Shown here one piece after another: positions 1,310-64,000 of a stretch of 64,000 nt of DNA. Below the pieces are notes generated by a model. It did no database searches. It saw only the letters and a program-made list of their open reading frames with translations, and was not told the DNA's origin. Position 1 is the first letter of the stretch; each line of letters starts with the position of its first letter. This DNA is from an uncultured Candidatus Saccharimonas sp. Lineage in GTDB: Bacteria > Patescibacteriota > Saccharimonadia > Saccharimonadales > Saccharimonadaceae. The stretch lies in assembly GCA_963532115.1 (NCBI GenBank), contig CAUSJG010000002.1:12550-76549 (forward strand), in the 5' to 3' direction. A program made the position numbers and the translations under genes.

Positions 1310-3286
1310 CTATTTCGCCATCTTCTTTCGAATCTCCGCAATCTGATCTCGTAAATCTGCTGCTTCTTCAAAAAGCAAATTTGCACTGGCAAGATTCATT
1401 TGATTCGTCAAATCTCGCACCAAATGCTCCCATTCTTCACGTGGAATTTTTCGCAAATCTAATTTTGGTTTTTTATCTTTTTGCGGAATAATCGCACGCA
1501 AACCTTCACCAATCTCACTAGCCACACTTTTTGGCGTAATTCTATTTTCGAAATTATATTTTTGTTGAATCTCTCGCCGCCGATTAGTTTCATCAATTGC
1601 GATCTTCATTGAGCGTGTAATTTTATCAGCATACATAATCACCTTGCCATCCTCATGCCGAGCCGCACGCCCAATTGTTTGAATCAACGCACTTTCTGAG
1701 CGCAAAAAGCCTTCTTTATCGGCGTCCATAATTGCTACCATTGAAACTTCTGGCAAGTCCAAGCCTTCACGCAAAAGGTTAATTCCTACCAAAACATCAT
1801 AAACCCCACTGCGCAAATCACGCAAAATATCACCACGCTCCAACGTGTCAATTTCGCTATGAATGTATGCTGTTTTCACACCATTTTCTTCTAAAAATCC
1901 GCTCAGATCTTCTGCCATCCGCTTGGTTAAAGTTGTCACCAAAACGCGCTGATTTTTCGAAATTCGCTCTCGAATTTCTTCCATTAGATCATCAACTTGA
2001 CCTTCGATTTTTCGAACTTCAATTTTAGGGTCAAGCAAGCCCGTTGGGCGAATAACCTGCTGAGCTGGTTTTGGCGAATGTTCAAGTTCGAAATCACCAG
2101 GAGTCGCCGAAACATAAATCGCTTGATTGATATGCTTATAGAATTCTTCGAAAGTTAGCGGACGATTATCGAGAGCTGATGGCAAACGAAAGCCATTATC
2201 CACTAAAACTGTTTTGCGCGCACGGTCACCATTAAACATTCCGCGAACTTGTGGTAAAGTCATATGCGATTCATCAACTAAAAGCAAAAAATCATCAGGA
2301 AAATAATCTAGTAAGGTTGCCGGCTGCTCACCAGCTGAACGCTCAGTTAAATAGCGCGTGTAATTTTCGATACCTTTAACAAAACCAGTTTCACGGAGCA
2401 TTTCAAGATCATATTTAGTGCGCTGTGTTAGGCGTTGAGCTTCCAAAAACTTCTTATTCTTTTCGAAATATTCGTGGCGTGCGTAAAATTCTTTTTCAAT
2501 TTGTGGAATCGCTCGATCAATAATTTCCTTTGGCGTAGCATAATGTGAATTTGGAAAAATATCAAAAAACTGTGGCTTTTCTAGAATTTCGCCCGTAAGT
2601 GGATTTAATATAATCAAGCGGTCAATTTCATCGCCAAAAAATTCCACTCGCACTGCCAAGTCTGAGCCAGCTGTAAAAATATCAACCGTGTCGCCACGAA
2701 CCCGAAAAGCTCCGCGTGCAAAATCTACATCATTTCGCTCATATTGAATATCTTTCAAATGTCGCAAAAACTTCTCGCGATTATATCGCATTCCAGGCTT
2801 AATATGAAGCGCCATTTGCATATAACTCGCCGGCGAACCGATACCATAAATACAACTCACACTCGAAACAATAATTGTGTCACTTCGAGTTAAAAGCGCC
2901 TCGGTTGCTGCGTGGCGGAGTTTTTCGATTTCTTCATTGATTCGTGAGTCTTTTTCAATATAAGTGTCAGTGCTCGCGATATAAGCCTCTGGCTGATAAT
3001 AATCAAAATAGCTCACAAAATAATGAACTTCATTTTCAGGAAAAAACTTTTTAAATTCACTGTAAAGCTGTGCGGCAAGAGTTTTATTATGCGCCAAAAT
3101 TAAAGTTGGCTTTTGAACTGCTTGAATAATATTCGCCATTGTAAAAGTTTTTCCCGAACCAGTTACACCAAGCAAAGTTTGTTCACGCTCACCATTTTTT
3201 AAGCCTTCAACTAGTTGCGAAATTGCTTGTGGCTGATCTCCAGTAGGCTGGTATTTTGATTTTAACTTAAACTCGCGATATTTCAT
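1310..3286 (-). CDS. uvrB: excinuclease ABC subunit B
   Basis: 658 aa; Walker A GVTGSGKT, helicase motifs, C-terminal UVR motif ([15 protein letters not shown]). Confidence 0.97.
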
Positions 3287-3327
3287 TATTTATATTTTAT
3301 AATATTTTTGGATAGAATGCAAGAAAG

Positions 3328-3846
3328 CTAAATATCTAAGCAGTAGTAATGGCCTCCTTGCGTAGTACTTCCATCTCCAGATTCTAATCTAAAAGTAACA
3401 GCCGCATGACCTTCTTTCACATCATGATAAATATAGCCTTCATCCTCGGCACATCTCGATCCTTTATGTATACGAACTTGAGTTTTACCATGATAAGTCT
3501 TAATATGGTATTCAAACTTAGCTTTTCTGTTTTTTGTATCCATATTACCGTAGATTGCACTATCAATAGATATATCATATTCATCACCATCAGGATCTCG
3601 TATATCTTGCCTGATATACGGTTTGATACTTTCAAAAGACTCTGGCATCCTTCCTTTATTTGCCGATCGATAATTTTGTATAGCTCCAGCAATTTCACCC
3701 ATATCTCTTTTTCTTTGTTCATTTCTCTGTGAGCGTTGCAAAACTGGCAGCCCAAGAAATATCATTATAAATATTAATCCAGCAATTGCAAGAACTAAAA
3801 CAACTTCAATAATCGTAAAACCCCGATAAAGATTATGCTTTTTCAT
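3328..3846 (-). CDS. type IV pilin-like protein (prepilin-type N-terminus)
   Basis: Trimmed to ATG 3846: MKKHNLYRGFTIIEVVLVLAIAGLIF. This is a G/FTxxE cleavage-methylation motif plus a hydrophobic helix. Confidence 0.85.
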   Translation of the reverse strand: MKKHNLYRGFTIIEVVLVLAIAGLIFIMIFLGLPVLQRSQRNEQRKRDMGEIAGAIQNYRSANKGRMPESFESIKPYIRQDIRDPDGDEYDISIDSAIYGNMDTKNRKAKFEYHIKTYHGKTQVRIHKGSRCAEDEGYIYHDVKEGHAAVTFRLESGDGSTTQGGHYYCLDI

Positions 3847-32169: not shown

Positions 32170-32257
32170 GCCGCGATGGTGGAATTGGTAGACACGCTAG
32201 ACTCAAAATCTGGTGAGCATTACGCTCGTGCCGGTTCAAGTCCGGCTCGCGGTACCA
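32170..32257 (+). tRNA. tRNA-Leu (anticodon CAA), CCA encoded
   Basis: Hand-folded: acceptor GCCGCGA/UCGCGGU, D-loop AAUUGGUAGA, anticodon loop CUCAAAA, long variable arm, T-arm GCCGG-UUCAAGU-CCGGC, then ACCA. Confidence 0.9.
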
Positions 32258-32607: not shown

Positions 32608-32683
32608 TGGTGCGGGTTAGGAGACTCTAACTCCTGGCCTCTTCCATGGCAAGGAAGCGCTCTAACAACTGAGCTAAACCCGC
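32608..32683 (-). tRNA. tRNA-Gly (anticodon GCC), CCA encoded
   Basis: Hand-folded: GCGGGUU acceptor, anticodon loop UUGCCAU, T-arm AGGAG-UUAGAGU-CUCCU, then ACCA. Unusual U19/A56 elbow positions. Confidence 0.88.
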
Positions 32684-34830: not shown

Positions 34831-34913
34831 ATTGATATTATTTTACCATATAACATCATAAGCGTAAAGATGTAACTCTAAAAAACGCACATCTTTTCCA
34901 AGCTTACAAAATT

Positions 34914-34944
34914 AGCCCCGTGGTTGTGCGTGTTCCACGGGGCT
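34914..34944. terminator. GC-rich 10-bp hairpin at host/prophage junction
   Basis: AGCCCCGTGG-11 nt-CCACGGGGCT with T-rich flanks on both strands. Confidence 0.5.
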
Positions 34945-35105
34945 TCTTGATTTTACAAATGAGATTTTTGCGAACGGGGTTTTGCAGAAATTTCAAAGTT
35001 AAATCAAGGTTTGAATTTCGAAAAAGAAAACGGCCAAAGAAGTAATGAATAGTGGCGACAGATAACATTTTCGAAAATCAAAAATAATAAAATTAAGGAG
35101 ATAAA

Positions 35106-35273
35106 ATGCACGCAAAAACAACAAAATTTAAAAAAATAATATTCTTTATGATTGTCGGACTGGTAGCTCTTGCTTGGTTTGGTTCAGAATATCGATGGCA
35201 AAAATATCGAAATTATGAAAAAGAACACAACTGTGAATGGCAAATGATCAATGAAATGGAGATTTGTAAATAA
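35106..35273 (+). CDS. small membrane protein (55 aa)
   Basis: Below the ORF-track cut-off. AAGGAGA RBS; MHAKTTKFKKIIFFMIVGLVALAWFG... The stop overlaps the RecT start (TAATG). Confidence 0.5.
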   Translation: MHAKTTKFKKIIFFMIVGLVALAWFGSEYRWQKYRNYEKEHNCEWQMINEMEICK

Positions 35274-35950
35274 TGTCAGAAGCAGAAAAAGATGCACGTA
35301 AAGTAGCGGTTCAAAAACGGCGAAAAACTTATGGCGAAATCGTTCCTTTTGCAGAAAATCTTTTTGAAGAAGGAATCTCACGTTCAGCAAAAGAACGAAT
35401 GCTTATTTCAGTTCATCGTTCAATTTTAGGCTTAGATAAACAAAAACAACTCCGCCCTCTTGATGATTTGAAACAGTTTATGATTATCGCTGGACAATTT
35501 GGCGTTAACCCATTTAAAAATGAAATTTACGCAACCTATGTTTGGAATTCAAGCACTGGACGCGAAGAACTTACGCCAATAGTTTCAATTCACGGACTGC
35601 GAAAATTAGCGCGCCGTGGTGGAATTTATTCACATACCGGAACTGCTGCAATTTCAAAAAACGCTGAAGGAAAACTCGAAAGTGTGACAGTGCCAGTTTT
35701 TGGTCTTATAAATGGTGAGATTCAAGAATTTACACGCTACACTGCCTTCTACGATGAATTTGTTCGCACTAATAAAAATGGCGAACCAATCTCTAACTGG
35801 GCAAAAATGCCAATCGTAATGCTTACTAAATGTGCTGAAGCAAATGCAATTCGCCAAGCGTTTGACATCTCTGGAATTTATATCGAAGAAGAAATTTCAC
35901 GCGAAGATGAGCAAATTATTAACCAAACTGAGGAGAAAATCAATGAATAG
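35273..35950 (+). CDS. recT: RecT-family single-strand annealing protein
   Basis: 225 aa; FGVNPFKNEIY..., IHGLRKLARR and MLTKCAEANAIRQAF are typical of phage RecT. Confidence 0.8.
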   Translation: MSEAEKDARKVAVQKRRKTYGEIVPFAENLFEEGISRSAKERMLISVHRSILGLDKQKQLRPLDDLKQFMIIAGQFGVNPFKNEIYATYVWNSSTGREELTPIVSIHGLRKLARRGGIYSHTGTAAISKNAEGKLESVTVPVFGLINGEIQEFTRYTAFYDEFVRTNKNGEPISNWAKMPIVMLTKCAEANAIRQAFDISGIYIEEEISREDEQIINQTEEKINE

Positions 35951-38018
35951 AGTTGATCACTTAAGCTATTCTGCTCTTGTAACCTTTCTACGAAATCAGG
36001 TTGAATTTCAAAAGCGTTACATTGCGAAGGTTTATGACAATCCTTCGAGCCCATCAATGGTAGTCGGTAAAGCTTTTCACAAAGCGCTTGAAATTTACTA
36101 CAAGGGCGGAACTTTTGACGAAGCTGCAGCTGCTGGGCTTGATGAAATAAATTCAACTAGCGATTACGAAATCGACTACGGAAAAACTGGCAGTCGTGAA
36201 AAAATGATTAAAGAATTTAACGATTCACTCAATATTTATTTTGAAGAAGCGCCAAAATTTGAAGTTCTTGATGCTGAAAAACGGCTCGAAGCTGAGATTT
36301 CGAAAGTTCCAATGGTTGGAATCATCGACCTAATCATTAAAGGCTCGAGTGAAGATAAAATTAAGCTTAAAGATTACAAAACAGTTTCGTTTTATTCTTC
36401 TGCTACTAACGATCCACTTGATCCGGAGTATCAAGAAAATTACAAATATTTGCTCCAAGGCTCAATTTATCTAGTTTTGGCCGAAAAGGTTCTTAAGAAA
36501 GAAATTGAAAGCGTTGGTTTTATCGAAATCAAGAAAACTAAAAATCGAGATGGTTCGCCACAAATTCGCGAGTTCGAATATTCTCGAAATGACTTGCTTG
36601 AGTTCTTGCCAACAACCGAAAAACTCATCACGAATGTGTTCGATTATGTGAATAATGACAACGCTAAATTCTTCCCTAACCCTAGTGATATCTTAAATGG
36701 ACAAGAATCAATGGAGGTTCTTGCGAATATCGAAACTGGATTTGATAAAGCTAAAATTAAGCGCAAGATGAACGTTGCGGAAAAATTCAGTGAGAAGAAT
36801 ACGACCGTTGATTTGCTCGAAACTGATGGCGAAACTAATGAGAATTTGATTATTAAAAAGTTCTTAGAGTTCGGAATCGGTGGCGCGATCGGTGAAACCT
36901 TCACTGGTGCAAGCATAATTCGTTACACTTTCCGCCCAAACCGTGGTGTTGCAATGAAGAATATCAGCTCACGCGCTGACGATCTTGCAATCGCTCTTCA
37001 AGCTAAATCAGTTCGGGTTCTTGCACCAATTTACGGCACAAACCTCATCGGTGTGGAAATTCCAAATCCTGAACGTAAAGTTCTAGATTTCGACGATTCT
37101 CTGCTTAAAAAAGGCACTTTCGAAATTCCGCTCGGCCAAGATATTTTTGGTGAAAATCATTATGGTGATTTAACTAAAATGCCACATCTATTAATTGCTG
37201 GGCAAACTGGCTCAGGTAAATCAGTAATGCTAAATGTAATTCTCGAATCGCTCACTAAACAACTTTCGACAGAAGAACTCCAACTCGTGCTAATCGATCC
37301 AAAGCAAGTTGAACTCGGATTTTATGAAGATAGTAAGCATTTATTAAAACCGATTGTCACTAATCCAATTCATGCACAAGAAACACTTGCAGATCTAGTG
37401 GAAGTAATGGAATCTCGCTATAAAACTTTGCGAAAAGCTGGTGTGAGAAAGATCGAAGACTACAAAGGCGAAATGCCGCGAATCGTTTGCGTAATTGATG
37501 AATTTGCCGACTTAATGATGACATCTGGTAATAAACGCGAAGAATTTAAATTGAATATTAAAGGTATGATCGAAACGATTCTGCATTTTAATAAAGATTT
37601 TGATTTATCAGAAGTAAAATCACTGGAAGATCTGAAAATTAACCCAAAAATGTCAGAGCTTGAAAAAGAAACGATTAAGGAACAGAAAAAAGCAATGAAA
37701 GATCTCGAAAAAGCAATCCTTGAAGCTTCAGATCTAGGGATACCAAGCGCAGAAAGTTCGATTATTCGAATCGCGCAAAAAGCTCGAGCAGTAGGAATTC
37801 ACTTGATTCTCGCAACCCAGCGACCTTCTGCTGATGTGGTAACAGGATTGATTAAAGCGAATATTCCAACCAAAATCGCATTTAGTGTAACTAACTCGCT
37901 AAACAGCAAGATTATTCTTGATGAAACTGGCGCAGAAATGCTTACCGGAAACGGCGATATGCTTTATCAAGACCCACGAGCTAATCATCTTGAACGACTA
38001 CAAGGATTCTATCTATGA
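35943..38018 (+). CDS. fusion protein: RecB/Cas4-like PD-(D/E)xK nuclease (N-terminal) + FtsK/SpoIIIE-type DNA translocase motor (C-terminal)
   Basis: Trimmed to ATG 35943 with a GAGGAG RBS. N-terminal half: SYSAL..., IIDLIIK...LKDYKT, QGSIYL (QxxxY). C-terminal half: PHLLIAGQTGSGKS, VCVIDEFADLMM, AVGIHLILATQRPSADVVTGLIKANIPTKIAFSV. Confidence 0.85.
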   Translation: MNRVDHLSYSALVTFLRNQVEFQKRYIAKVYDNPSSPSMVVGKAFHKALEIYYKGGTFDEAAAAGLDEINSTSDYEIDYGKTGSREKMIKEFNDSLNIYFEEAPKFEVLDAEKRLEAEISKVPMVGIIDLIIKGSSEDKIKLKDYKTVSFYSSATNDPLDPEYQENYKYLLQGSIYLVLAEKVLKKEIESVGFIEIKKTKNRDGSPQIREFEYSRNDLLEFLPTTEKLITNVFDYVNNDNAKFFPNPSDILNGQESMEVLANIETGFDKAKIKRKMNVAEKFSEKNTTVDLLETDGETNENLIIKKFLEFGIGGAIGETFTGASIIRYTFRPNRGVAMKNISSRADDLAIALQAKSVRVLAPIYGTNLIGVEIPNPERKVLDFDDSLLKKGTFEIPLGQDIFGENHYGDLTKMPHLLIAGQTGSGKSVMLNVILESLTKQLSTEELQLVLIDPKQVELGFYEDSKHLLKPIVTNPIHAQETLADLVEVMESRYKTLRKAGVRKIEDYKGEMPRIVCVIDEFADLMMTSGNKREEFKLNIKGMIETILHFNKDFDLSEVKSLEDLKINPKMSELEKETIKEQKKAMKDLEKAILEASDLGIPSAESSIIRIAQKARAVGIHLILATQRPSADVVTGLIKANIPTKIAFSVTNSLNSKIILDETGAEMLTGNGDMLYQDPRANHLERLQGFYL

Positions 38019-38323
38019 CAAAACCTGAATATCTATTAATTAAACAACTAGCGTATCAATTTTATAAAGAAAATCATTCAGCGAAAGCGTGGGCGGACTA
38101 TGCCGCCGCCTATCGCTCAAAGCTGATAGAAATGAAAGATGAACGCCAAGTGGCAGAAGTCTTCGAAGAATTCGAAGTCGACGAAATACGAGAATTCGTG
38201 ACTAAGTATTATGAAAAAATGCCGTCTCAAACAAGACAAGAAATTAAAAAAGTCATTGCAGCTCGTGTGCAAAGAATGACACAAAACCGCCAACGAACAT
38301 TTTTTACAAAGGATCAAAAATGA
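38015..38323 (+). CDS. hypothetical phage protein
   Basis: 102 aa; ATGA start/stop overlap with the upstream gene. Confidence 0.6.
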   Translation: MTKPEYLLIKQLAYQFYKENHSAKAWADYAAAYRSKLIEMKDERQVAEVFEEFEVDEIREFVTKYYEKMPSQTRQEIKKVIAARVQRMTQNRQRTFFTKDQK

Positions 38324-38532
38324 ATTTCAGAACAGTAATTAGTCAAATTTTTAATAAATATTCAACTGCAGATATCACAGAGCTAAAAGAAATTTTCAGT
38401 TCAAAACTCGCTCTCCCCTTAAAAGCAGAAATGCTGCAATATGTAATGGATTGTGAAGATCGGCAAATTTGTGAAGATTTCTTACGAAGGAACAGCGAAA
38501 AATTAATAAAGGAGTTAAGCTATGAATTTTGA
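38320..38532 (+). CDS. hypothetical phage protein
   Basis: 70 aa; ATGA overlap. Confidence 0.55.
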   Translation: MNFRTVISQIFNKYSTADITELKEIFSSKLALPLKAEMLQYVMDCEDRQICEDFLRRNSEKLIKELSYEF

Positions 38533-38797
38533 CCAAAAATTAATCCGTGACTTTCTGGAAAATATTATTTTAGAAAATCGCAATCTTTACGAAGATGGTT
38601 TTGAAGATATGGATTTTGACGAATTTTGCAGATATTACGAAATTGGTAATGGCCTTGCCGAAAAAATGGATATTAAAGACTTCCCTTTCGAAGATTGGCA
38701 AAACGATTATTATAATGAATATCTCAAAGAATGTAAAGAAAATAGTATAGAGCGTTCACAGCAGTTTGATGATTATCGACGAGCAGTAGGATTTTAA
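38522..38797 (+). CDS. hypothetical phage protein (acidic)
   Basis: 91 aa; AAGGAG RBS. Confidence 0.6.
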   Translation: MNFDQKLIRDFLENIILENRNLYEDGFEDMDFDEFCRYYEIGNGLAEKMDIKDFPFEDWQNDYYNEYLKECKENSIERSQQFDDYRRAVGF

Positions 38798-38808
38798 AAA
38801 ATAAGTTT

Positions 38809-38931
38809 AGCCTTCCAATGGGCACAGGTTTCGCAAGTGGTTTAGAGCTGCAGAAAAAAGTCGAGCACCTCCTTATTAGTAGCTCGCCGCGATTATTTCG
38901 TGGTTATGAGCCTTGTGTCCGTTGGAGGGCT
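38809..38931 (+). ncRNA. candidate structured RNA with an anti-Shine-Dalgarno-like loop
   Basis: A 20-bp closing helix pairs 38809-38828 with 38912-38931. It has 4 G:U pairs, so it is valid only on the plus-strand transcript. Internal hairpins include CGAGC-ACCUCCUUAUUAGUA-GCUCG, which displays ACCUCCUUA. Confidence 0.5.
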
Positions 38932-38950
38932 GAAATCTAAAGGAAGAATT

Positions 38951-39061
38951 ATGAAAATTTTAATTAATGGTGTTTCTAGAGTAGTTAAAATTAAAGTTAA
39001 TATTATTTCGCCAGAATGGCAAAGATATGAGGAATTAAGGTATGTTAATGAGAAAAACTGA
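38951..39061 (+). CDS. possible 36-aa ORF
   Basis: AAAGGAAG RBS; MKILINGVSRVVKIKVN... Overlaps the next gene by 20 nt. Weak support. Confidence 0.25.
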   Translation: MKILINGVSRVVKIKVNIISPEWQRYEELRYVNEKN

Positions 39062-39500
39062 AGAAAATCTGCACCTTAAAATTTGCGATTACCTGCGCAA
39101 GAATTACCCTGATGTGCTATTTCGCACAGATTTCTCAAGTGGTATGAAAATGAGCCCAGGTCAAGCGGCAAAACACAAGAAATTTCAGAAAGGACGAGCT
39201 TGGCCGGATCTGTTTATTGCTTTGCCGAGAGAGATGATTGCCGTAGACACAAAAAATGGCAACAGTATCTATAGTCAAAACGTTGGCGGTTTATTTCTCG
39301 AACTTAAAGCTGAAGGCACGAAACTTTACAAAAAGAATGGCGAAATGGTTGCAAATAAGCACTATCGAGAGCAAGCAGAAATGTTAGATAAGCTAATCGA
39401 ATCTGGTTATTATGCACGATTCGCCGTTGGTTACGATCAAGCAATTCAAATTATCACAAATTATCTCGGCGAGCCAAAACCAAAGAAAGTCGAATTTTAA
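39042..39500 (+). CDS. VRR-NUC-type PD-(D/E)xK nuclease
   Basis: 152 aa; WPDLFIA...GLFLELKAEG (D...ExK) with flanking VRR-NUC-like helices. Confidence 0.65.
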   Translation: MLMRKTEENLHLKICDYLRKNYPDVLFRTDFSSGMKMSPGQAAKHKKFQKGRAWPDLFIALPREMIAVDTKNGNSIYSQNVGGLFLELKAEGTKLYKKNGEMVANKHYREQAEMLDKLIESGYYARFAVGYDQAIQIITNYLGEPKPKKVEF

Positions 39501-39523
39501 TAACTAGAAATGAAAGGATAACT

Positions 39524-39709
39524 ATGAAACAACCTGATATTCAGCATTTGATTATGCAAGATCTAAAATTTAAAATGTCGGCTTGGCGAGCGATTGCGAT
39601 TATAGCCTTGTTACTATTTTCGGGTGCATTTGGGCTATTTATCGGCTCAGAAGCTGAACTCAAAAGCACTAAAACTAAGCTAAATACTACGGTCAATTGT
39701 CAAAAATAA
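39524..39709 (+). CDS. small membrane protein
   Basis: 61 aa; RBS GAAAGGA; TM helix AIAIIALLLFSGAFGLFIG. Confidence 0.55.
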   Translation: MKQPDIQHLIMQDLKFKMSAWRAIAIIALLLFSGAFGLFIGSEAELKSTKTKLNTTVNCQK

Positions 39710-39724
39710 ATTAAAGGAGAAAAA

Positions 39725-40132
39725 ATGTTTTTCAATAGAAAGAAGATAAGAGAACTCGAAGAAAAACTCCGAGAATGCGAATTGGAAAGCAGAAAATACA
39801 AAAAAATTTCAGCACTATTACATGAGAAACTCGAAGAATACGAGGAACTCTTAGATCTTAAAGACCAAAGGGTTGTAATCACACAAGACGGCAAATTTTC
39901 GCAATTAATGATTGGCGGAAAGCTCATCAGGAATGTCACCTCAGTTGAAGTTGAGAGATACGGATCGGGAGTGCTGAACGAGTTCAAATTTGGAATTTTA
40001 GCAGAAGATATAATCATTAGAAAGAAAGGAAGCAAAACATGTACCCGAACAACCAAGCAGATATCGACCGCCAACGGTCAAGAAAGCATAACGAGAATAA
40101 AAAGAATCGACGTGACAACGCTCGCAGACTAA
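39725..40132 (+). CDS. hypothetical phage protein (coiled-coil N-terminus)
   Basis: 135 aa; AAAGGAGA RBS. Confidence 0.55.
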   Translation: MFFNRKKIRELEEKLRECELESRKYKKISALLHEKLEEYEELLDLKDQRVVITQDGKFSQLMIGGKLIRNVTSVEVERYGSGVLNEFKFGILAEDIIIRKKGSKTCTRTTKQISTANGQESITRIKRIDVTTLAD

Positions 40133-40233
40133 CAATTCAAAACGAGCAAGCCAACGGAATTTATACCGTAAAAGAGAACAAACGAACTTATAAGCAGAAA
40201 TTGGAGGAACGAAAAAATGCTCAAAAAATTTAA
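40039..40233 (+). CDS. possible basic 64-aa protein overlapping the previous ORF
   Basis: AAGGAAG RBS 8 nt upstream. Overlaps 39725-40132 by 94 nt in another frame. Confidence 0.4.
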   Translation: MYPNNQADIDRQRSRKHNENKKNRRDNARRLTIQNEQANGIYTVKENKRTYKQKLEERKNAQKI

Positions 40234-40516
40234 TTTGAAATACGGCATTAAAGAGCCAGAAACACCAAAAAGTAAAACTCCCCAGTTTGAAGTCGGCGAG
40301 CAGGTCTACTATCGACCATATGAGCAACGCAACGAAAATCAAATTCACCTCGGAAAAATCGCACGAATTAGAGCAGACGCGCTCGGCTTCAAATTTTACG
40401 AAATTGTCGCTACACCGCCGAAACACCCGAACAAGAAATATATCCACTCATTACCAGCACAAAACATTTTTAAAATCGAAGAAATCGAGGGTAAAAATGG
40501 CGAAACCAAAGTATAA
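40217..40516 (+). CDS. hypothetical phage protein
   Basis: 99 aa; GGAGGA RBS. Confidence 0.55.
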   Translation: MLKKFNLKYGIKEPETPKSKTPQFEVGEQVYYRPYEQRNENQIHLGKIARIRADALGFKFYEIVATPPKHPNKKYIHSLPAQNIFKIEEIEGKNGETKV

Positions 40517-40670
40517 GCGAGAAAAGAATTGTTATTGTCACAACTGTATGAAATACTTTCATTATCTTGGCATAAATCGACACCGAGCTATGCACAGAGA
40601 TAAAAAAGAGTGTTGCAAGATAACATTTACTCACGGCAACACTGTGATTTATAAATTTGATGAAAAATAA
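40497..40670 (+). CDS. small Cys/His-rich (zinc-ribbon-like) protein
   Basis: Trimmed to ATG 40497 (GAGGGTAAAA RBS): MAKPKYKREKNCYCHNCMKYFHYLGINRHRAMHRDKKECC... Confidence 0.5.
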   Translation: MAKPKYKREKNCYCHNCMKYFHYLGINRHRAMHRDKKECCKITFTHGNTVIYKFDEK

Positions 40671-40681
40671 GGAGCGAAGAA

Positions 40682-40906
40682 ATGAAACCACAAGAACGAA
40701 ACCTTTCAGGAATTTATGTCCGAATAAAACGCGACGGAAAATATCAATCAATCGACCTCACGGACATGACGCCCGAAGAATTAGAAGAATTTCTCAACAA
40801 AGAAGATTTGACAATCGACTATTTCAGACGACTAACGAAAAATTTGATTGAAGTCATTCAAGAAAACGCCGACAAATACAACAACGAGGCGGACGAGGAG
40901 GAATAA
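40682..40906 (+). CDS. hypothetical phage protein
   Basis: 74 aa; AAGGAG RBS. Confidence 0.55.
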   Translation: MKPQERNLSGIYVRIKRDGKYQSIDLTDMTPEELEEFLNKEDLTIDYFRRLTKNLIEVIQENADKYNNEADEEE

Positions 40907-40910
40907 GAAA

Positions 40911-41324
40911 ATGGACGAATACGAAGAAGGCTTTGAATACTTTTACATCACCAGCGACCGCTTCGTGGACGGAGTCGAAACAAAAGACGAATACCTCGAG
41001 CAACGCAGGAAATCATTTGGCAACTATTTCAAAACCCGAGATGAAGCTGGAGATTATCTTTCATACCTGAAAGCAAGAGCAATCATCAAGCAAGATACTA
41101 AAGGATTCAAACCTGATTGGACTGATAAGAAAACAAGAAAATATTATGGCTATTGGGATTTCGAAAGAGGCTTCAAAAACTATTTTGAAGGTGGTAAACC
41201 TTCTTGGGATTCATTACAGACAACTAAGGAATCAAATATTTACTTTGAGTCTTGGGAAGATATTGAAGAAAGCTTCGAGAAGCATCCCGAAGAATGGAAA
41301 ACTTATCTGACTTATGAACAGTAA
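40911..41324 (+). CDS. hypothetical phage protein
   Basis: Trimmed to ATG 40911 (GAGGAGGA RBS): MDEYEEGFEYFYITSDRF... Confidence 0.55.
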   Translation: MDEYEEGFEYFYITSDRFVDGVETKDEYLEQRRKSFGNYFKTRDEAGDYLSYLKARAIIKQDTKGFKPDWTDKKTRKYYGYWDFERGFKNYFEGGKPSWDSLQTTKESNIYFESWEDIEESFEKHPEEWKTYLTYEQ

Positions 41325-41484
41325 AGAATGTCTTAATCCTGATTATGCTTACATCGTAGTAGAATACGAAAATGGTATCGTCAAAACTAAGTATGAGTTC
41401 CCTACAAAAAATTTAGCTAAAACATTTGTTAAAACGATGGGTAAAAATTTTAGATATAAGGGACAAAATAAAAAAGTCTCATAA
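41314..41484 (+). CDS. possible 56-aa protein
   Basis: Below the track cut-off. The ATG overlaps the upstream stop; MNSKECLNPDYAYIVVEYENG... Confidence 0.35.
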   Translation: MNSKECLNPDYAYIVVEYENGIVKTKYEFPTKNLAKTFVKTMGKNFRYKGQNKKVS

Positions 41485-41796
41485 TCTTCCGCCCTACCAT
41501 ATGGCGTTAAACTGGGCAACGCAAAACCTACAACTCTTTTGCGAAATGTTCTAAAAAAATATAGCAGACTTGGCGAAGTGAAAACTTCGCCCCTCGAATC
41601 TGAGCATAACTAATAATTACAAAATAATATTTAATAGAAGTTGTAAATATAATAATAGGTCTTGTGTGTTAGTGTCTATACACACAAAGGTTATGTTCAG
41701 ATTTGAGGGTTTTAGCAGAAACAAGCACCTTCAACACAATCATAAGCAATTTTCAAGTGTTTCTGCCCTACCTCAATAATATTAAAGGAGATAAAT

Positions 41797-42036
41797 ATGA
41801 AAAACAATTTTATAATAGTTCACGAAACACTTATACAATCAATATTAGCAGACATCTTTTCATTCCTAACGATTGCCTCAATGTTGTTATTTAATCATTA
41901 TCTGCTAAGCAGTAATGTATTACTTGATTTATGTTTTATGTATATGGCTTTCATTGTGATGAAATCGAAAGGCAATAAAAAGATAAAAAGGTTTGACACT
42001 AAAGAAGAAGCAATTAAATTTTTGGAGAAGCAATAA
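41797..42036 (+). CDS. small membrane protein
   Basis: 79 aa; AAAGGAGA RBS; two hydrophobic helices. Confidence 0.55.
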   Translation: MKNNFIIVHETLIQSILADIFSFLTIASMLLFNHYLLSSNVLLDLCFMYMAFIVMKSKGNKKIKRFDTKEEAIKFLEKQ

Positions 42037-42305
42037 TGGAAATGAAATGGCATAAACTCACTAAAAGACCTCTTGATGATGAGGAAAAAGAATATTATAA
42101 AGACAGCAAAATCAAAATCGATTTTATGTGGGATGGTTATGACCCAGACATAGGCGAAGAAGTTCTTGTTTGGATTCCTCAGCGCAAAGGAGTATATACA
42201 GATATTTGGAATGAGTATGATGATGGCATGGCTTTTGAATACACAGATGAAGAAGTTATTTACTGGATGAGCTTTCCAGAACCACCTGAGATTAAGAAGA
42301 AATAA
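42036..42305 (+). CDS. hypothetical phage protein (DUF551-like C-terminus?)
   Basis: 89 aa; ends ...VIYWMSFPEPPE. The family call is from memory only. Confidence 0.45.
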   Translation: MEMKWHKLTKRPLDDEEKEYYKDSKIKIDFMWDGYDPDIGEEVLVWIPQRKGVYTDIWNEYDDGMAFEYTDEEVIYWMSFPEPPEIKKK

Positions 42306-42314
42306 GGAGTAGAT

Positions 42315-42758
42315 ATGGAGAGCCTAGATAGAGAAACAATTAAACTCATAGAAGAATTATGTCAGAAAGAAGTCGAACGAATTGGACTGCCACTTATCTT
42401 AGATAAAGATGGTATATTCGTGGAAGATGAGGTGTCATATATTCGTCAGAAAATGCACCTTGATTTAGAGGGCTTTGATGAGATATTTGTAGATAACCAA
42501 AACCATCTAAGATTCAAAGACGGAAAGTGGAAACTTGAATATGATAAAGGCGAATTTTATGGGTATGAATTACATATAAGACGAAATGGCTACTCTTACG
42601 TAATAAATCTTCGATTGAATAATCATCTAACTAAAGAGAACCTTGTTAAAAAGTTATCATCTGATGAATTTAAAGAAATGTTCGACCAGTGTAAAGAGTT
42701 AGACAAAGAGCTATATGAAATAAGAGATAACTTAAAATTTTTCATAAATGAGGGGTAA
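42315..42758 (+). CDS. hypothetical phage protein
   Basis: 147 aa; AAGGAG RBS. Confidence 0.55.
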   Translation: MESLDRETIKLIEELCQKEVERIGLPLILDKDGIFVEDEVSYIRQKMHLDLEGFDEIFVDNQNHLRFKDGKWKLEYDKGEFYGYELHIRRNGYSYVINLRLNNHLTKENLVKKLSSDEFKEMFDQCKELDKELYEIRDNLKFFINEG

Positions 42759-43241
42759 ATGAAATACATAGTATTTGACATCGATGGAGTTTTGGCGGAT
42801 TGCTCGCATCGTTTGAAATATATTCAGGGTAAAGATAAGGATTACGACAAGTTCTATTCCGATGAAGAGATAATGAAAGACAGACTGATATTGGACATCA
42901 CGGACATAATAATAGCATTGGGAAATTTCGATGATTATACTGGTGTTGACGAAGAAGATCAAACTAGGATTATTTTTGTCAGTGGAAGAAATAAAAAATG
43001 CTTAAGTTCTACAATTCGGTGGTTAGAAACAAATCTAAATGTCTGTATTAATGAAGATAATCTTTTCCTCCGCTCAGAAAATGACTGGCGACCAGCTTAC
43101 CAAATCAAGGAAGATTTAATTAAAAAGCATATTGGCTTTAAAAATATTCTCTTCGCATTTGATGACGATGATAAAGTGAATGATATGTATAAAAAACACG
43201 GGGTTATATGTTATAAGCCTAATATAACGAGTGTCGTATAA
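42759..43241 (+). CDS. HAD-superfamily phosphatase (polynucleotide 3'-phosphatase/nucleotidase-like)
   Basis: 160 aa; motif I FDIDGVL, motif II VSGR, motif III FDDDDK. Confidence 0.7.
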   Translation: MKYIVFDIDGVLADCSHRLKYIQGKDKDYDKFYSDEEIMKDRLILDITDIIIALGNFDDYTGVDEEDQTRIIFVSGRNKKCLSSTIRWLETNLNVCINEDNLFLRSENDWRPAYQIKEDLIKKHIGFKNILFAFDDDDKVNDMYKKHGVICYKPNITSVV

Positions 43242-43255
43242 AAATAGGAATAAAT

Positions 43256-43495
43256 ATGAATAAAGCTAAAAAATATGACGATAAAAGAATTAAATCTCTT
43301 TTGAATCCGCGACTAAAGAAAGAGAAAACTATACGACGAGTATTTGTAAGTGATGAATTTAAACAGAAATTTAATATTAATTCACCAGAAAATATCTTTG
43401 AAATAGAAGTCGATCAACGAGTAATGGATAAAGAACATGAAAGAATTATAGATTCATCTATAAAAATTTTAGAAGAAATAAAGGAGCGAGTATAA
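43256..43495 (+). CDS. hypothetical phage protein
   Basis: 79 aa. Confidence 0.5.
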   Translation: MNKAKKYDDKRIKSLLNPRLKKEKTIRRVFVSDEFKQKFNINSPENIFEIEVDQRVMDKEHERIIDSSIKILEEIKERV

Positions 43496-43647
43496 TGAGT
43501 GATAATTTTAAAAATAACTTTTTAGTAATTTGTTTTCTATCAAATTTAGCGTTGTTGGTTTTATCTGATAATTTAGCACTTCGTATTTTGAACTTTTTAG
43601 CGATTATTTTGGTGGTTTATGTGTTTTCGCTAGTTGATAAAAATTAA
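43495..43647 (+). CDS. possible 50-aa membrane protein
   Basis: Below the track cut-off. TAATG overlap with the upstream stop; AGGAG RBS; two hydrophobic stretches. Confidence 0.4.
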   Translation: MSDNFKNNFLVICFLSNLALLVLSDNLALRILNFLAIILVVYVFSLVDKN

Positions 43648-49945: not shown

Positions 49946-50320
49946 TTACGCCTCTTTTCTAACTGGAATTAAACTCACTTTAAAGGGGTCGAAAATTCCA
50001 CGTTTTTTGTCTTTGAGCTGAACGCTGTAATCGCCAGCGTAAAATTGGCCAGATTTCATCGCATTATATTTTGGGTCGAAATATTCAACTGTGAAAAATG
50101 GTAAATCAACCACGCGTGCGATTTTTTGGATTTCTGCCACAGTTAAAATTCCGCCAAATTCAACTTCAATTTTTGGGAAAATTCCAATCATTGTTGCACG
50201 AATTTCGCCGGCCATATTGCGGTCTGAATTTAGCCAGAGCTTATTTCTCTGGAGTTGATAACTTTTCAAATTCGAAAAAACCTGACCATTGATTTTAAGT
50301 AATTCACCATTTATTTGCAT
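49946..50320 (-). CDS. small tail structural protein
   Basis: Trimmed to ATG 50320 (AAGGGGA RBS), because the longer ORF covers a promoter/terminator cassette. Confidence 0.45.
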   Translation of the reverse strand: MQINGELLKINGQVFSNLKSYQLQRNKLWLNSDRNMAGEIRATMIGIFPKIEVEFGGILTVAEIQKIARVVDLPFFTVEYFDPKYNAMKSGQFYAGDYSVQLKDKKRGIFDPFKVSLIPVRKEA

Positions 50321-50346
50321 TTTCGAAATTCCCCTTTCGTTTGGAC

Positions 50347-50428
50347 ATAAAAAAGCGACCCACCCCGAGGGGTGAATCGCAAATGGTTCTTCTAACTTTA
50401 TTATACCAAACTTTAGCCTTTTTGGCAA
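50347..50428 (-). promoter_or_regulatory. late cassette B: promoter + conserved box + intrinsic terminator
   Basis: Minus strand TTGCCA-17 nt-TGGTATAAT, then 9 nt, then AGAACCATTTGCGA. A 12-bp hairpin GCGAUUCACCCC-UC-GGGGUGGGUCGC (two G:U pairs) follows, then UUUUUUAU. Confidence 0.6.
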
Positions 50429-51197: not shown

Positions 51198-51367
51198 TTT
51201 TTTCCAATCCTCGACTAAATAAATTGAGCCGATGTTTAAAGTAGTATTGTTGTTCAGACGAATACGAAAGCTTCAAAATAAGCAAAAACATCAGCTCAAT
51301 TTAAAAGCTTTCCGTATTTTTTTGTCTGAACAATTTTATTATACAACCAAAAGCCTATCAAAATCAA
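51198..51367 (-). promoter_or_regulatory. promoter and structured 5' leader of the moron gene
   Basis: Minus strand TTGATT-18 nt-TATAAT (51338-51367). The leader contains two interleaved long helices: A/A' (51305-51332 with 51251-51273) and B/B' (51287-51302 with 51222-51237). Confidence 0.5.
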
Positions 51368-51369
51368 GC

Positions 51370-51389
51370 AAAAAAGAGGCATTCGCCCC
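51370..51389 (-). terminator. intrinsic terminator directly after the tape measure gene
   Basis: Minus strand GGGGC-GAAU-GCCUC + UUUUUU, 10 nt after the stop codon. Confidence 0.6.
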
Positions 51390-51398
51390 TTTTTCTCT

Positions 51399-59045: not shown

Positions 59046-59128
59046 AAAAGAAAAACGACTCTCAGCTTTATGCTAAAAGTCGCAAATGGTTCTGATAATA
59101 TTATAGCATAATGTTTATTCTTATGCAA
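59046..59128 (-). promoter_or_regulatory. late cassette A: promoter + conserved box + intrinsic terminator
   Basis: Minus strand TTGCAT-17 nt-TGCTATAAT, then 6 nt, then AGAACCATTTGCGA. An 11-bp hairpin CGACUUUUAGC-AUAAA-GCUGAGAGUCG (two G:U pairs) follows, then UUUUUCUUUUU. Confidence 0.6.
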
Positions 59129-59421: not shown

Positions 59422-61817
59422 TATAGTTTTGAAATCCTTTCTAATAATTCGTTAAACATATTAAAGCTTTCCGGCAAATATTTTTCATAAAGCTCGATTT
59501 CCTTTTTATCGTCTCGAGCAGTTGCTGAAAACATTTCGGCAAAAGCTTCTGAACCGAGAAAACGCTTTTTATGATTTTCAATTTGCTCCTTACTTAATTT
59601 TACACCTCTTATCGTTTTTCTGCCATCCCAATATTTCTGTTCGTGACCCATTCCGAAGACTCTTAACCCGTTATTAAACGCAGCACCACCATATAAATCA
59701 AAAATACTTGCTAAATCATTTTTTGAATAACCATTTTCAAGTTCGTTTTTAAGTTCAACAGACAAATTGTGTCGTCTATAGGCCAAATTTCTTCCTTCTT
59801 TAGTTTTTAGATACCTATTTGCTTCATCAAAAACAGTTTCACCAAGAGTTTTACCATTAGAAAGTTCAAACTTACCAGTAGCTCCATAAAATGAACCACG
59901 CCCTGCTCGATGATCAAAACCGTGACCATATTCATGCAGAAAAACCTCAAATGGTTTTCTTATATCTTTTCGATTTCCAGTTGAACCATCGAATATACCA
60001 GCTATACGAACACTTACCTTATTTCCAAGCACGCTAAAGTTATCATTCCCAAGCGGTGAATCTTTAAAAGATAGTTCGCTCGAAAATTTAGCCCAAATAG
60101 AACGATGAGTTTCCGGCATTGCGTTTAGTTTTCTGACGACTTTTTCTCTAGTATCATCAGTTTTCAATGCTTCATTGAGCGAATTTTCAAGTTTTAAGCT
60201 CTTAATATCAGAATTATTAACTTTTTTAGTTGGTGGTTTTTTAATTTTAACTTCAATCTTATCATCAGCCGGTGAAATACTCGGCGTTGAAGCTGGCTCA
60301 GCTTTCGATATTCCGCTAACTTTTGCCCATTTTTCATAGCTCATATTTGGTGTCTCGTAATTCTCGCCCGTTTTTGGGTTTCTGGCAATTCGAGTTTCTG
60401 GATCGAATTCTTCACCAAAATATGCGGCTGTTGTTGTTCGGCAAAGTGGGTGAAATGGTGGAAAGTTTACACCTTGTTTGGCTTCACTGATTTTAAAAAC
60501 TTTATGGTCTTTATGTTGGCAGATATCGCTAGTGCGGCCGTCCAGTGTTGCAATAATACGGTATTTTTCAACTCCTAATTCTTGGTAGGCTCGCAATTCT
60601 GCTGAGTTATGGTAAAAAGCAGATTCAGTGCGAACAAGCCGTTCAGCATAAAACCGCCCAACATCAAAACGTTCACGAACTTCACGGATCGTTTTTTCAG
60701 GACTTTGCCCAATTGCTACGGCTGTAGCTATTTTCGAATTGACTTGTTCAGCCAAAATGTCGGTATTCGCCCAGATACGGTTCGAAAAATGCTTTCCTTC
60801 AATTTTATAGTTCAAAATTTCCTGCACGGTTCGTGAGTCTAATTTTGAAAAGGTTAAAAGTGAACCAAACTGTTTTTCGGTATCAAAGATTGCTTGATTA
60901 TACGAATTATTAATTGTGTTTATAACCGAATTAGCCGTGAGATTATTCTGCTCAATTCCAGCCTTTTTTAGTTCTGCCCAAATCTGGTTATTGAGCATTT
61001 CTAATCTTGTCATTCTGAAATCGTAATTCTCCGGCAAATATTGATTCAAACCGAGTCGTTCCATTTCAGCTTTAAACCTTGCTATATTTCCGCTTGGCTC
61101 AATCCCTTGTAGTGCGAATTTGTCGAAAGTTTTATCGTTGCGGTAATAATTAGCATATAACTTCTTAATTTCACGAATTGTTCGAATTTCAGCATCAGTG
61201 TAAGCATTTTTTATCCGACGAATATAGCTCAAAGATTGTTGTTCTTGGTTTTCGAAACGGGCGGCGGCACGGTTTTGCCAATAATTTATCGTGTTAGTCT
61301 TGATTTTTTCTTTGTTTTGTGGTAATATTAAATCATAAAGAACACTGTCGTGTCTTGCATAAGAGGCGGCGGTGTTCTTTTCTTGTATAGAAATAAAGTT
61401 TTTAATACCGAACTGAGATACTCTTTTCTTAATTTCATCCCTGAGAAATATAGTTTTCTCCTCAGAATCTGAAACAATTTCATAAATAACCGAGTGTGTT
61501 CCTTGCTGGAGCGCTTTTTTTGTCTGATTTTCTACTGAACGAGCACTTGAAACCTGCTTAATCTCTACTTTTTGACCATTTACGATTAAGTCTGGCATCT
61601 TTACACCATCTGGCTTTTCTACTCGGCGGACGGCGTAAATTTGAGCATTATCCCCTAATTCTCCGCGGATAAACTCTACGATAGAGCTCTCCTTATCACT
61701 CAATGGATAATTCTTCTCAAACTCCCAACTATCATCAAAATTATCAAAAAAAGCCCGATACCCCGAGCTTGTTAACTCGGGGATCATTGGATCTTCTGTT
61801 TTTTTATTCTTTGGCAT
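59421..61817 (-). CDS. MuF/SPP1 gp7-family minor head protein with N-terminal PD-(D/E)xK-like module and C-terminal HExxH zincin-like domain
   Basis: 798 aa. PDLIVNGQKVEIK (aa 75-87); MuF core RTESAFYHN...ATLDGRTSDICQHKDHKVF...FPPFHPLCRTT (aa ~390-462); LHEYGHGFDH (aa 627-636); SEAFAEMF (aa 756-763). Confidence 0.8.
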   Translation of the reverse strand: MPKNKKTEDPMIPELTSSGYRAFFDNFDDSWEFEKNYPLSDKESSIVEFIRGELGDNAQIYAVRRVEKPDGVKMPDLIVNGQKVEIKQVSSARSVENQTKKALQQGTHSVIYEIVSDSEEKTIFLRDEIKKRVSQFGIKNFISIQEKNTAASYARHDSVLYDLILPQNKEKIKTNTINYWQNRAAARFENQEQQSLSYIRRIKNAYTDAEIRTIREIKKLYANYYRNDKTFDKFALQGIEPSGNIARFKAEMERLGLNQYLPENYDFRMTRLEMLNNQIWAELKKAGIEQNNLTANSVINTINNSYNQAIFDTEKQFGSLLTFSKLDSRTVQEILNYKIEGKHFSNRIWANTDILAEQVNSKIATAVAIGQSPEKTIREVRERFDVGRFYAERLVRTESAFYHNSAELRAYQELGVEKYRIIATLDGRTSDICQHKDHKVFKISEAKQGVNFPPFHPLCRTTTAAYFGEEFDPETRIARNPKTGENYETPNMSYEKWAKVSGISKAEPASTPSISPADDKIEVKIKKPPTKKVNNSDIKSLKLENSLNEALKTDDTREKVVRKLNAMPETHRSIWAKFSSELSFKDSPLGNDNFSVLGNKVSVRIAGIFDGSTGNRKDIRKPFEVFLHEYGHGFDHRAGRGSFYGATGKFELSNGKTLGETVFDEANRYLKTKEGRNLAYRRHNLSVELKNELENGYSKNDLASIFDLYGGAAFNNGLRVFGMGHEQKYWDGRKTIRGVKLSKEQIENHKKRFLGSEAFAEMFSATARDDKKEIELYEKYLPESFNMFNELLERISKL

Positions 61818-63188: not shown

Positions 63189-64000
63189 TTAGAAAATTAG
63201 TGAGTTTGTGCCTGTTGAGCCTCGATTTGAATTTGTAATAATGATCGGCTCGGCTCGCGCGGTGCATTGCTCGAAGATTCCGGCCAAAATATCACACATG
63301 TCATCGTGGGCGTTTTTGCCTTTGCGTTGATATCTCAGAACTTCATTAGCAGCTTCTGGCCATTTTTTCTGCCAATTCGGTGGCATAAATAGATGATTCT
63401 GTAGCCATGCGCTCGATGATAGAATGCGACTTTCCTTGTTTTTGGTTTGCGTAGGTGTTTTAATAACTACTTTCGAATTTCCATTTTCTTCAAGAATCCT
63501 TTTCACGTTGCGTGCAAAACCGCGACCGCCGTTGTTGCTTTCAATCCTAGCAACGCTCACATCGCCGGAGTCCAACATTTCAGCAACGGCCTTTTCAGTA
63601 AATTCCATCGGCTTGTCGGTATAAGTTATGTCAGTTATATAAACATCTTGACCATTCTTAATGTAATTCGCGCTAGCAAGGAAGTCAGCACCTTTGTCGG
63701 CCGTGTCGGTGATATTTTCAACAATTCCCTCAGGCAGTTCATCCCACTCCATAAACGGCTTAAATAATCGCCCAGCGACATCGATTGGTTTTTGATTATA
63801 ATTCGCCTCCACAATATCCATATTCATCGCTCGAGTCTTTTTCTTAAAAGTTTCGTAGTTCAGAATATCATCGCACAGCATTTTCGGTTTACCTTTTGGA
63901 GTTTTTGTCACAGCACGATATTCAATTACCCGTGGCTTAAACTCTTCGATAAATCGTCCAGCAAGGTCACCAGTTGCCCAGCGTGTCATCACAAGGATTA
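63189..64000 (-). CDS. terL: terminase large subunit, C-terminal part (gene continues beyond window end)
   Basis: The frame is open to the window edge. TRWATGDLAGR linker motif and an RNase-H-like nuclease domain (DTADKGADF..., HDDMCDILAG). Confidence 0.8.
   Translation of the reverse strand, partial: ILVMTRWATGDLAGRFIEEFKPRVIEYRAVTKTPKGKPKMLCDDILNYETFKKKTRAMNMDIVEANYNQKPIDVAGRLFKPFMEWDELPEGIVENITDTADKGADFLASANYIKNGQDVYITDITYTDKPMEFTEKAVAEMLDSGDVSVARIESNNGGRGFARNVKRILEENGNSKVVIKTPTQTKNKESRILSSSAWLQNHLFMPPNWQKKWPEAANEVLRYQRKGKNAHDDMCDILAGIFEQCTARAEPIIITNSNRGSTGTNSLIF

Follow-up and report, generated by a model that had tools for sequence, protein, structure and literature searches.

In the PR'-qut-tR' region of phage lambda, which is served by the Q protein (phages 82 and 21 and the BrrG system belong to the same class), a strong constitutive promoter is followed within tens of nucleotides by an intrinsic terminator, and only a short RNA is made unless a phage factor that acts near the promoter permits read-through into the late genes, with a specificity that follows the phage type. 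The N/nut sites of lambda combine a short linear RNA box with a hairpin near the promoter, one such site per transcription unit, and are phage-type-specific as well. In the BglG/SacY-RAT, ANTAR and HutP systems, the RNA that is recognized lies in an untranslated leader and shares sequence with the 5' arm of an intrinsic terminator. In attenuation by trans-acting RNA (pT181/pIP501, pCF10 Anti-Q, P4 CI RNA, T-box tRNA), pairing to the nascent leader decides the fate of the terminator. Furthermore, mobile elements combine insulator terminators with antitermination (PMC11658703). The cis-acting RNA antiterminators (HK022 put, EAR, Tn916 canT) are large structured RNAs located between promoter and terminator. 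To our knowledge, gene regulation in phages of Saccharibacteria and other bacteria of the Candidate Phyla Radiation (CPR) is essentially undescribed. The three cassettes analyzed here come from a prophage of such a bacterium, an uncultivated mouth inhabitant of the Saccharibacteria (TM7); as predicted gates, they would share the listed features with the first three classes of systems, and a candidate early RNA with a loop complementary to the three boxes and the stem base provides the likeness to the fourth. Viewed as putative gates of the late genes, the cassettes resemble lambda PR'-qut-tR' most in function and the N/nut sites in layout.

The window (the whole stretch of 64,000 nucleotides that was analyzed) is filled with host genes up to about 35 kb, followed by a temperate siphophage of Candidatus Saccharibacteria of about 32 kb that is present as a prophage; a megablast search of the GenBank phages with this locus gives zero matches. 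The early phage genes, including those for RecT, an exonuclease/FtsK-like fusion, a VRR-NUC nuclease and a polynucleotide-kinase-like protein, are encoded on the plus strand (35106-43647). The late genes occupy the minus strand from 43816 to beyond 64000 and encode an endolysin, a DUF859 tail protein, a 663-aa tail protein, a DUF6711 protein, a moron, the tape-measure protein, tail and head proteins, a MuF-like protein, the portal and the large terminase. Ahead of the genes for the tail tip and lysis, the earlier note had placed a cassette (cassette B) that consists of a promoter, a 14-nt box and a terminator hairpin. When the minus strand is read directly, all of these elements turn out to be exact to the base:

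50423..50428, minus strand: -35 hexamer TTGCCA (read directly and found by consensus scan)
50400..50408, minus strand: extended -10 TGgTATAAT (read directly and found by consensus scan)
50377..50390, minus strand: box AGAACCATTTGCGA, with the core AACCATTTGCG (read directly)
50355..50380, minus strand: hairpin B, GCGAUUCACCCC/GGGGUGGGUCGC, 11-12 bp with two G:U pairs, about -20 kcal/mol
50347..50354, minus strand: U-tract (U6), UUUUUUAU
50331-50337, minus strand: ribosome-binding site AAAGGGG, with the ATG of the DUF6711 gene at 50320
49946..50320, minus strand: DUF6711/phrog_1194 tail-tip (Dit-like) gene, 124 aa
50448..51197, minus strand: moron, a 249-aa predicted membrane protein

The -35 hexamer and the extended -10 are separated by a 17-nt spacer, and 9 nt (aaagttaga) lie between the -10 and the box, with transcription predicted to start at about 50393 and to yield a short transcript of about 45 nt. 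The 3'-most 4 nt of the box form the base of the 5' arm of the hairpin, which is valid on the minus strand only because of its two G:U pairs; the leader hairpin folds with -21.2 kcal/mol (RNAfold, z = -3.2). The length and stability of the stem together with the U6 tract are those of an intrinsic terminator, and the predicted promoter, TTGCCA-17-TGgTATAAT, has 11 of the 12 consensus positions plus the TG, as in extended -10 promoters of the housekeeping-sigma type. Over the 20 kb from 44 to 64 kb, a consensus scan ranks this promoter first and hairpin B first among the terminator-like sites, so that the top promoter-like and the top terminator-like site of this region lie on the same strand, 19 nt apart. 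The whole interval from the U-tract to the ATG at 50320 is 27 nt and includes the ribosome-binding site. A 160-aa version of the downstream gene, called across the cassette and previously suspected to be an artefact, is indeed one: its start codon is the TTG of the -35 hexamer, and the match to the Pfam profile DUF6711 (positions 1-132 of its 134) begins with the first residue of the 124-aa version, in which phrog_1194 covers residues 5-119.

On the other side of the cassette, the moron, for which both Pfam and PHROG give no match, has a promoter-like site of its own (51333-51367, minus strand), ahead of which a terminator-like hairpin (51370-51395, minus strand) follows the tape-measure gene. 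The sole terminator for the moron is hairpin B. The earlier note had allowed that this hairpin might simply end the upstream moron gene, and this is right to the extent that the moron transcript must stop here. The word "simply", however, does not hold. In contig L122 (2560-2860), a 70-aa zinc-ribbon gene with its own terminator replaces the 249-aa moron, and module B is kept about 100 nt behind it, with a different -35 region and with TATAAT retained without the TG although the upstream DNA differs; thus, hairpin B is not merely the moron terminator. The slot behind the tape-measure gene, compared between the window and L122, has the appearance of an exchangeable moron site.

The 14-mer box occurs exactly twice without mismatch in the window, each time on the minus strand (50377-50390 and 59080-59093). 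In 64 kb, such a repeat alone is insignificant; what counts is the matching context. The second copy belongs to cassette A, located ahead of the genes for the scaffold (58961) and the major capsid protein, where the 14-mer is embedded in the same succession of elements, in agreement with the earlier description of cassette B as one of two copies of a promoter/box/terminator module. A third gate, P1, is seen in IMG/VR contigs of the same phage that reach beyond the end of the window:

59046..59128, minus strand: cassette A, whole (14-mer repeat, consensus scan, detector and fold)
59123-59128, minus strand: cassette A -35 hexamer TTGCAT, with a 17-nt spacer downstream
59100-59108, minus strand: cassette A extended -10 TGcTATAAT, 6 nt from the box
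59080-59093, minus strand: cassette A box, the same 14-mer
59055-59083, minus strand: cassette A hairpin, 12 bp, different in sequence from hairpin B
59046-59054, minus strand: cassette A U-tract
L044 2840-2915: P1 gate, just past window position 64000, at the head of the late operon

P1 reads TTGCTA-17-TATAAT, aaagttac, (A/G)AACCATTTGCGG, the hairpin GCGGATACTGA/TCAGTGTCCGC and U6, and the core box common to gates P1, A and B is AACCATTTGCG. A module detector, which required a hairpin and a U-tract within 32 nt downstream of an extended -10 or of a perfect TATAAT, was applied to both strands of the window (128 kb); A and B are the only strong modules, and two weak ones (about -6 to -7 kcal/mol) are additionally identified. 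Given that cassette B includes the best promoter/terminator pair, has a copy in cassette A and a third copy beyond the window, its arrangement is not due to chance.

Upstream of P1, there are only divergent genes, namely, a 131-aa gene denoted A2 and a tyrosine integrase. Downstream, P1 leads into the gene denoted A1, the terminase, the portal and the MuF-like gene; gate A leads into the scaffold, capsid, connector, tail-tube and tape-measure genes; and gate B leads into the tail-tip and lysis genes. Thus, the division of the late region into gated units that had been claimed from cassettes A and B stands, with P1 as the third gate, and the related phages share this three-position architecture. 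No promoter is evident between each gate and its genes: the consensus scan detects no good promoter between terminator A and the scaffold gene, and there is no credible one after A or P1. In addition to the gates, a terminator-like hairpin (61753-61790, minus strand, -18.7 kcal/mol, T7) is located inside the start of the MuF-like gene and is conserved at L186 4200-4236 with loop changes only.

Related loci were reached via homologues of the capsid protein (the phage MCPs are 42-98% identical), and contigs with the same capsid gene are assigned to Candidatus Saccharibacteria or Saccharimonas. In 44 loci, the detector identifies 81 modules on the late-gene strand versus 28 on the other strand, and the related phages carry 2-3 modules each, at the same three kinds of position. 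All modules of one phage have one and the same box, and the boxes differ between phage types (e.g., AACCATTTGCG, AATCATTTGCGAC, ATCAATGACGAC or ATCAAT(A/G)ACG(A/G)C in degenerate form, ATACCAGTGCAC, GAATCAATCGC, TCGATAACGCA, TTAATTGCG and ACTCGTTG). In every module of the relatives, the box either adjoins the 5' arm of the hairpin or reaches into it, at a constant spacing, whereas the number of nucleotides that separate it from the -10 ranges from 6 to 12. Either TGnTATAAT or TATAAT is retained in nearly all of these modules, several of which have tandem double terminators, and a partial box, ATTGCGAC, sometimes recurs ahead of the second tandem hairpin, about 45 nt downstream.

The close relatives keep TGnTATAAT at cassette B; their promoter, box and stem are invariant, with the box unchanged in every type I copy, and the substitutions are confined to the 6-nt spacer, the loop and the downstream DNA. 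In an alignment of 10 modules of types I and II, 8 of the 12 consensus pairs stay paired through two-sided changes, which indicates that the hairpin is real, and the box columns are nearly invariant. None of the host terminators in the window begins with GCGAC. Judging from the fixed abutment, the variable spacing to the -10, the partial boxes and the lack of GCGAC at host terminators, the box is coupled to the hairpin and not to the promoter.

Exact scans of IMG/VR with the 14-mer and with the pattern TATAAT-N5-11-AACCATTTGCG return almost exclusively chance matches, and the real ones all belong to this one phage lineage. The sole early gene that the relatives have in common encodes the VRR-NUC nuclease. 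Other phages from oral metagenomes that were reached via this gene contain TGnTATAAT, then a shared initially transcribed motif and then a terminator (L258 9266/11781, L268, L269, L270, L240 5884, L251 6328, L256 3824, L267 14066); the gate design, as far as can be judged from these arrangements, may be common outside this phage group. Phages of type VII have a second promoter-driven element upstream of the scaffold gene, a 43-nt nested hairpin, TCAGYCCTCCGCGTAGTTCTGCTACGTGYAGCAATCGRGCTGA, followed by a U-tract (L194 9125, L208 6210, L209 5851, L210 9118, L211 8293, L215 3785).

We propose, with a probability of about 0.5, that cassettes P1, A and B are conditional-terminator gates for the late genes that would be opened by a putative phage-specific factor. 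The predicted transcript of each gate starts at or a few nucleotides before the box and then enters a strong intrinsic terminator (-17 to -20 kcal/mol plus a U-tract). With no promoter downstream of the gates, the packaging, head, tail and tail-tip transcripts all have to pass a hairpin, and the phage therefore needs a way through these strong terminators; in particular, the tail-tip genes can be transcribed only through hairpin B, so that read-through must be switchable on. The type specificity of the box, in turn, indicates a specific factor. In the proposed mechanism, when the factor is absent, each promoter would yield only the RNA of about 45 nt, and the genes for packaging (P1), head and tail tube (A), and tail tip and lysis (B) would be silent, a state that would extend to the lysogen. 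During lytic growth, a phage-type-specific factor would recognize the box and either keep the base of the stem (GCGA) unpaired or make the polymerase resistant to termination, and transcription would run on into the late genes. Hairpin B would additionally end the moron transcript that arrives from upstream.

From the geometry alone, the box is most likely recognized in the nascent RNA beside the hairpin, given its coupling to the latter. The tandem terminators and the intragenic hairpin 61753-61790 hint at processive modification of the polymerase over the blocking of a single stem. Searches of the approximately 30 phage ORFs against Pfam and PHROGs detect no known antiterminator or late regulator (Q, N or other), and an Rfam search yields nothing at the gathering threshold in the window and nothing at E <= 5 around the cassettes. 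Pairing of the box with the downstream leader or start codon, which a single fold of cassette B had suggested, was rejected: in 40 modules, it is no better than that of shuffled boxes.

The comparison of these putative gates with the known systems brings out differences from all of them. There are three gates here and one in lambda, and promoter and terminator are much closer together: the terminator begins at about +10 to +16 here, whereas lambda tR' ends a transcript of roughly 190 nt; the host, moreover, is a CPR bacterium. Unlike the N/nut sites, the hairpin here is the terminator itself, and the loops vary freely, whereas N reads the boxB loop; an N-like arginine-rich protein is not established in this phage. 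As opposed to the BglG/SacY, ANTAR and HutP systems, no CAT/PRD, ANTAR or HutP domain is detected with Pfam, the 5' tail of 9-16 nt, which is unstructured in all folds of the gate leaders, permits no alternative antiterminator hairpin, and the tandem terminators suggest processivity. Compared with the large cis-acting RNAs of the put, EAR and canT type, only 9-16 nt are available between +1 and the hairpin, and there is no Rfam match. The gates do contain the arrangement that is typical of lambda, in which a terminator behind the late promoter bars the way to the late genes. They lack a Q-family protein among the scanned ORFs and a fixed position of the element relative to the promoter, and by these features they fall outside the Q systems, as they do outside the attenuators of the RAT/ANTAR type and the cis-acting RNAs of the put/canT type.

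For the factor itself, there are two candidates. The first, an unproven one, is the A1 protein family. A1, whose length is 131-156 aa and whose C-terminal helix is basic, is the product of the first gene behind P1, is present at this position in 8 of the 9 box types and has only 24 homologues. Its AF2 model is a confident prediction (pLDDT 83); searches with this model detect no structural or profile match in the PDB, where solved structures would include Q proteins, or in BFVD. The gene sits downstream of its own gate. A1 is not found near P1 in the type V phages, yet these have boxes, which argues against it as the universal partner. In the type V phage L226, which is without an A1 gene at the P1 position, a 339-aa ORF judged by eye to be reverse-transcriptase-like (2619-3638) is located directly upstream of P1.

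The second candidate is a structured RNA encoded among the early genes:

38806..38934, plus strand: candidate trans-acting structured element of about 130 nt in a gap of the early operon

This element folds as a three-way junction (-59.9 kcal/mol, z = -6.5). Its segment UCGCAAGUGGUUUA (38831-38844), with a mean unpaired probability of 0.71, can pair with the boxes of all three gates, over 13 contiguous positions in each case, and the pairing takes in the first four bases of the stem; the P1 box departs from the boxes of A and B at two positions, and opposite both of them the early RNA has U, which pairs with A or G. Across 128 kb, this is the best non-cis site for pairing with the boxes (summed energy -58.2, the next being -49.2, against a mean of -19.7 and an sd of 6.7), and 6 of 300 shuffled boxes match that pairing in the early region. 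Six further contigs of the same phage contain the element unchanged, and a sequence search finds it in this phage only. A covariance model identifies the same closing stem with another interior at L239 3383-3482 and L260 4070-4164, both of them contigs of oral phages. There is no Rfam match to the element at E <= 10, and scans for complements of the boxes in other phages give matches at chance level only.

That this RNA, and not a protein, opens the gates is conceivable from the complementarity but doubtful. If it did, UCGCAAGUGGUUUA would pair with each nascent leader of the late genes over its first 13-14 nt, cover the GCGA or GCGG at the base of the terminator stem and strip the hairpin from the U-tract, and early transcription would switch on late transcription. 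Known antisense attenuation promotes termination, whereas the pairing considered here would prevent it; if the RNA model is true, this would be a new kind of phage switch. The early element is bounded by what appear to be inverted repeats and may be mobile. A further part of it, CACCTCCTTA, is similar to the 3' end of 16S rRNA.

Recognition could also take place at the DNA level, in the manner of Q. The box would then be a Q-binding and/or sigma-dependent pause element in the initially transcribed region, where an unrecognized Q-type protein would load on the paused polymerase and bring about processive read-through of all terminators. The layout is that of PR'-qut-tR', with a strong promoter, a terminator soon after and the late genes behind, and the tandem terminators and the intragenic hairpin 61753-61790 argue for processivity. 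The pause element of lambda is AACGAT, and both AACCAT in type I and AATCAT in type II keep A2 and T6 of a -10 hexamer; however, types III and VI do not have the motif xAnnnT in their boxes, so that a -10-like pause motif is not kept in all types. Furthermore, the spacing of the box is fixed relative to the hairpin but differs by up to 6 nt relative to the -10, and the box not only touches the hairpin but reaches into the stem. Q-like systems do exist outside the lambdoid phages, e.g., BrrG of the Bartonella gene transfer agent (bioRxiv 10.1101/2024.11.20.624540), but zero matches to Q families are found here with Pfam and PHROGs. On balance, a mechanism of this kind is unlikely.

We consider it very unlikely that the box is an operator for a prophage repressor, such as the A2 protein encoded beside the integrase, that would close all late promoters, with the terminators as mere insulators or dampers of leakage and a constitutive partial read-through. 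A type-specific sequence that is common to the late promoters and overlaps +1 does resemble immunity operators, and the A2 family gives a faint hint of similarity to SlyA/MarR-type proteins (E = 0.66). The box, however, is asymmetric and present in a single copy, tracks the hairpin and not the promoter, and recurs in partial form at the second hairpins about 45 nt downstream, but is not found close to the promoter of the divergent A2 gene; leakage is not expected of stems with -17 to -20 kcal/mol and U6 either.

The modules can also be viewed as genes for small RNAs (about 45 nt each) that have the 5' seed in common, end in a terminator hairpin and would act on host or phage mRNAs, their position ahead of late genes being secondary. 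The architecture is that of a minimal seed-plus-terminator small RNA, such units form arrays in some relatives (in L194, three within 650 nt, including the conserved 43-nt hairpin), and the best complementary site of the window, in the early-region RNA, could equally be a target of the small RNAs. Nevertheless, this view is highly improbable: the units are always in the sense orientation and immediately upstream of essential late genes that have no later promoter, so that read-through is needed anyway, the complementarity to the downstream leaders is not significant, and there is no target beyond the single early site. Finally, an ordinary arrangement, with hairpin B as the moron terminator and the promoter-like sequence and the 14-mer next to it by chance, is hardly credible. 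Hairpin B is indeed the only terminator after the moron, and a 14-mer can easily recur by itself within 64 kb; yet the comparative data contradict this reading, since the phage has three copies of the module, dozens of relatives conserve it with covariation, and in L122 it persists behind a moron with its own terminator.

With the cassettes read as conditional-terminator gates, phages with CPR hosts would possess factor-dependent terminator gates, three per genome, and the factor is probably novel: the data point to an antitermination factor unlike Q, N and the other known families, which may be A1 or a trans-acting RNA. The cassettes would then represent a widespread regulatory grammar, in which an extended -10 promoter, a type-specific box and a terminator stand at the packaging, head and tail/lysis blocks, and late operons of such phages would become annotatable from sequence alone. 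Annotators should be aware that ORFs called across such cassettes are artefacts, as exemplified by the 160-aa ORF. Intrinsic terminators and promoters of the housekeeping type appear to be used in the Saccharibacteria hosts. The parts of a gate are compact (about 80 bp) and modular, and as such are suited to reporters.

Several further observations concern the organization of these genomes. In phages that are otherwise near-identical, the block of lysis and tail-fibre genes is inverted together with its own gate (L187 15232-17651 versus L189 17577-19200), and tail-fibre genes (Gp10_C, DUF859) are on the opposite strand in L189, L191, L193 and L195. In the window, the genes for tRNA-Leu(CAA) (32170-32257, plus strand) and tRNA-Gly(GCC) (32608-32683, minus strand) are about 2.5 kb from the left prophage boundary, which probably lies in the region of about 34900-35100. 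The 29.7-kb contig L238 (9378-14449) has the early genes in a single transcription unit with A2 and the integrase; in the integrated state, the A2-integrase pair (L044 1146-2711) and the early genes (35106-43647) are at opposite ends. By analogy with Tn916-like elements, integration may uncouple the early genes from their promoter.
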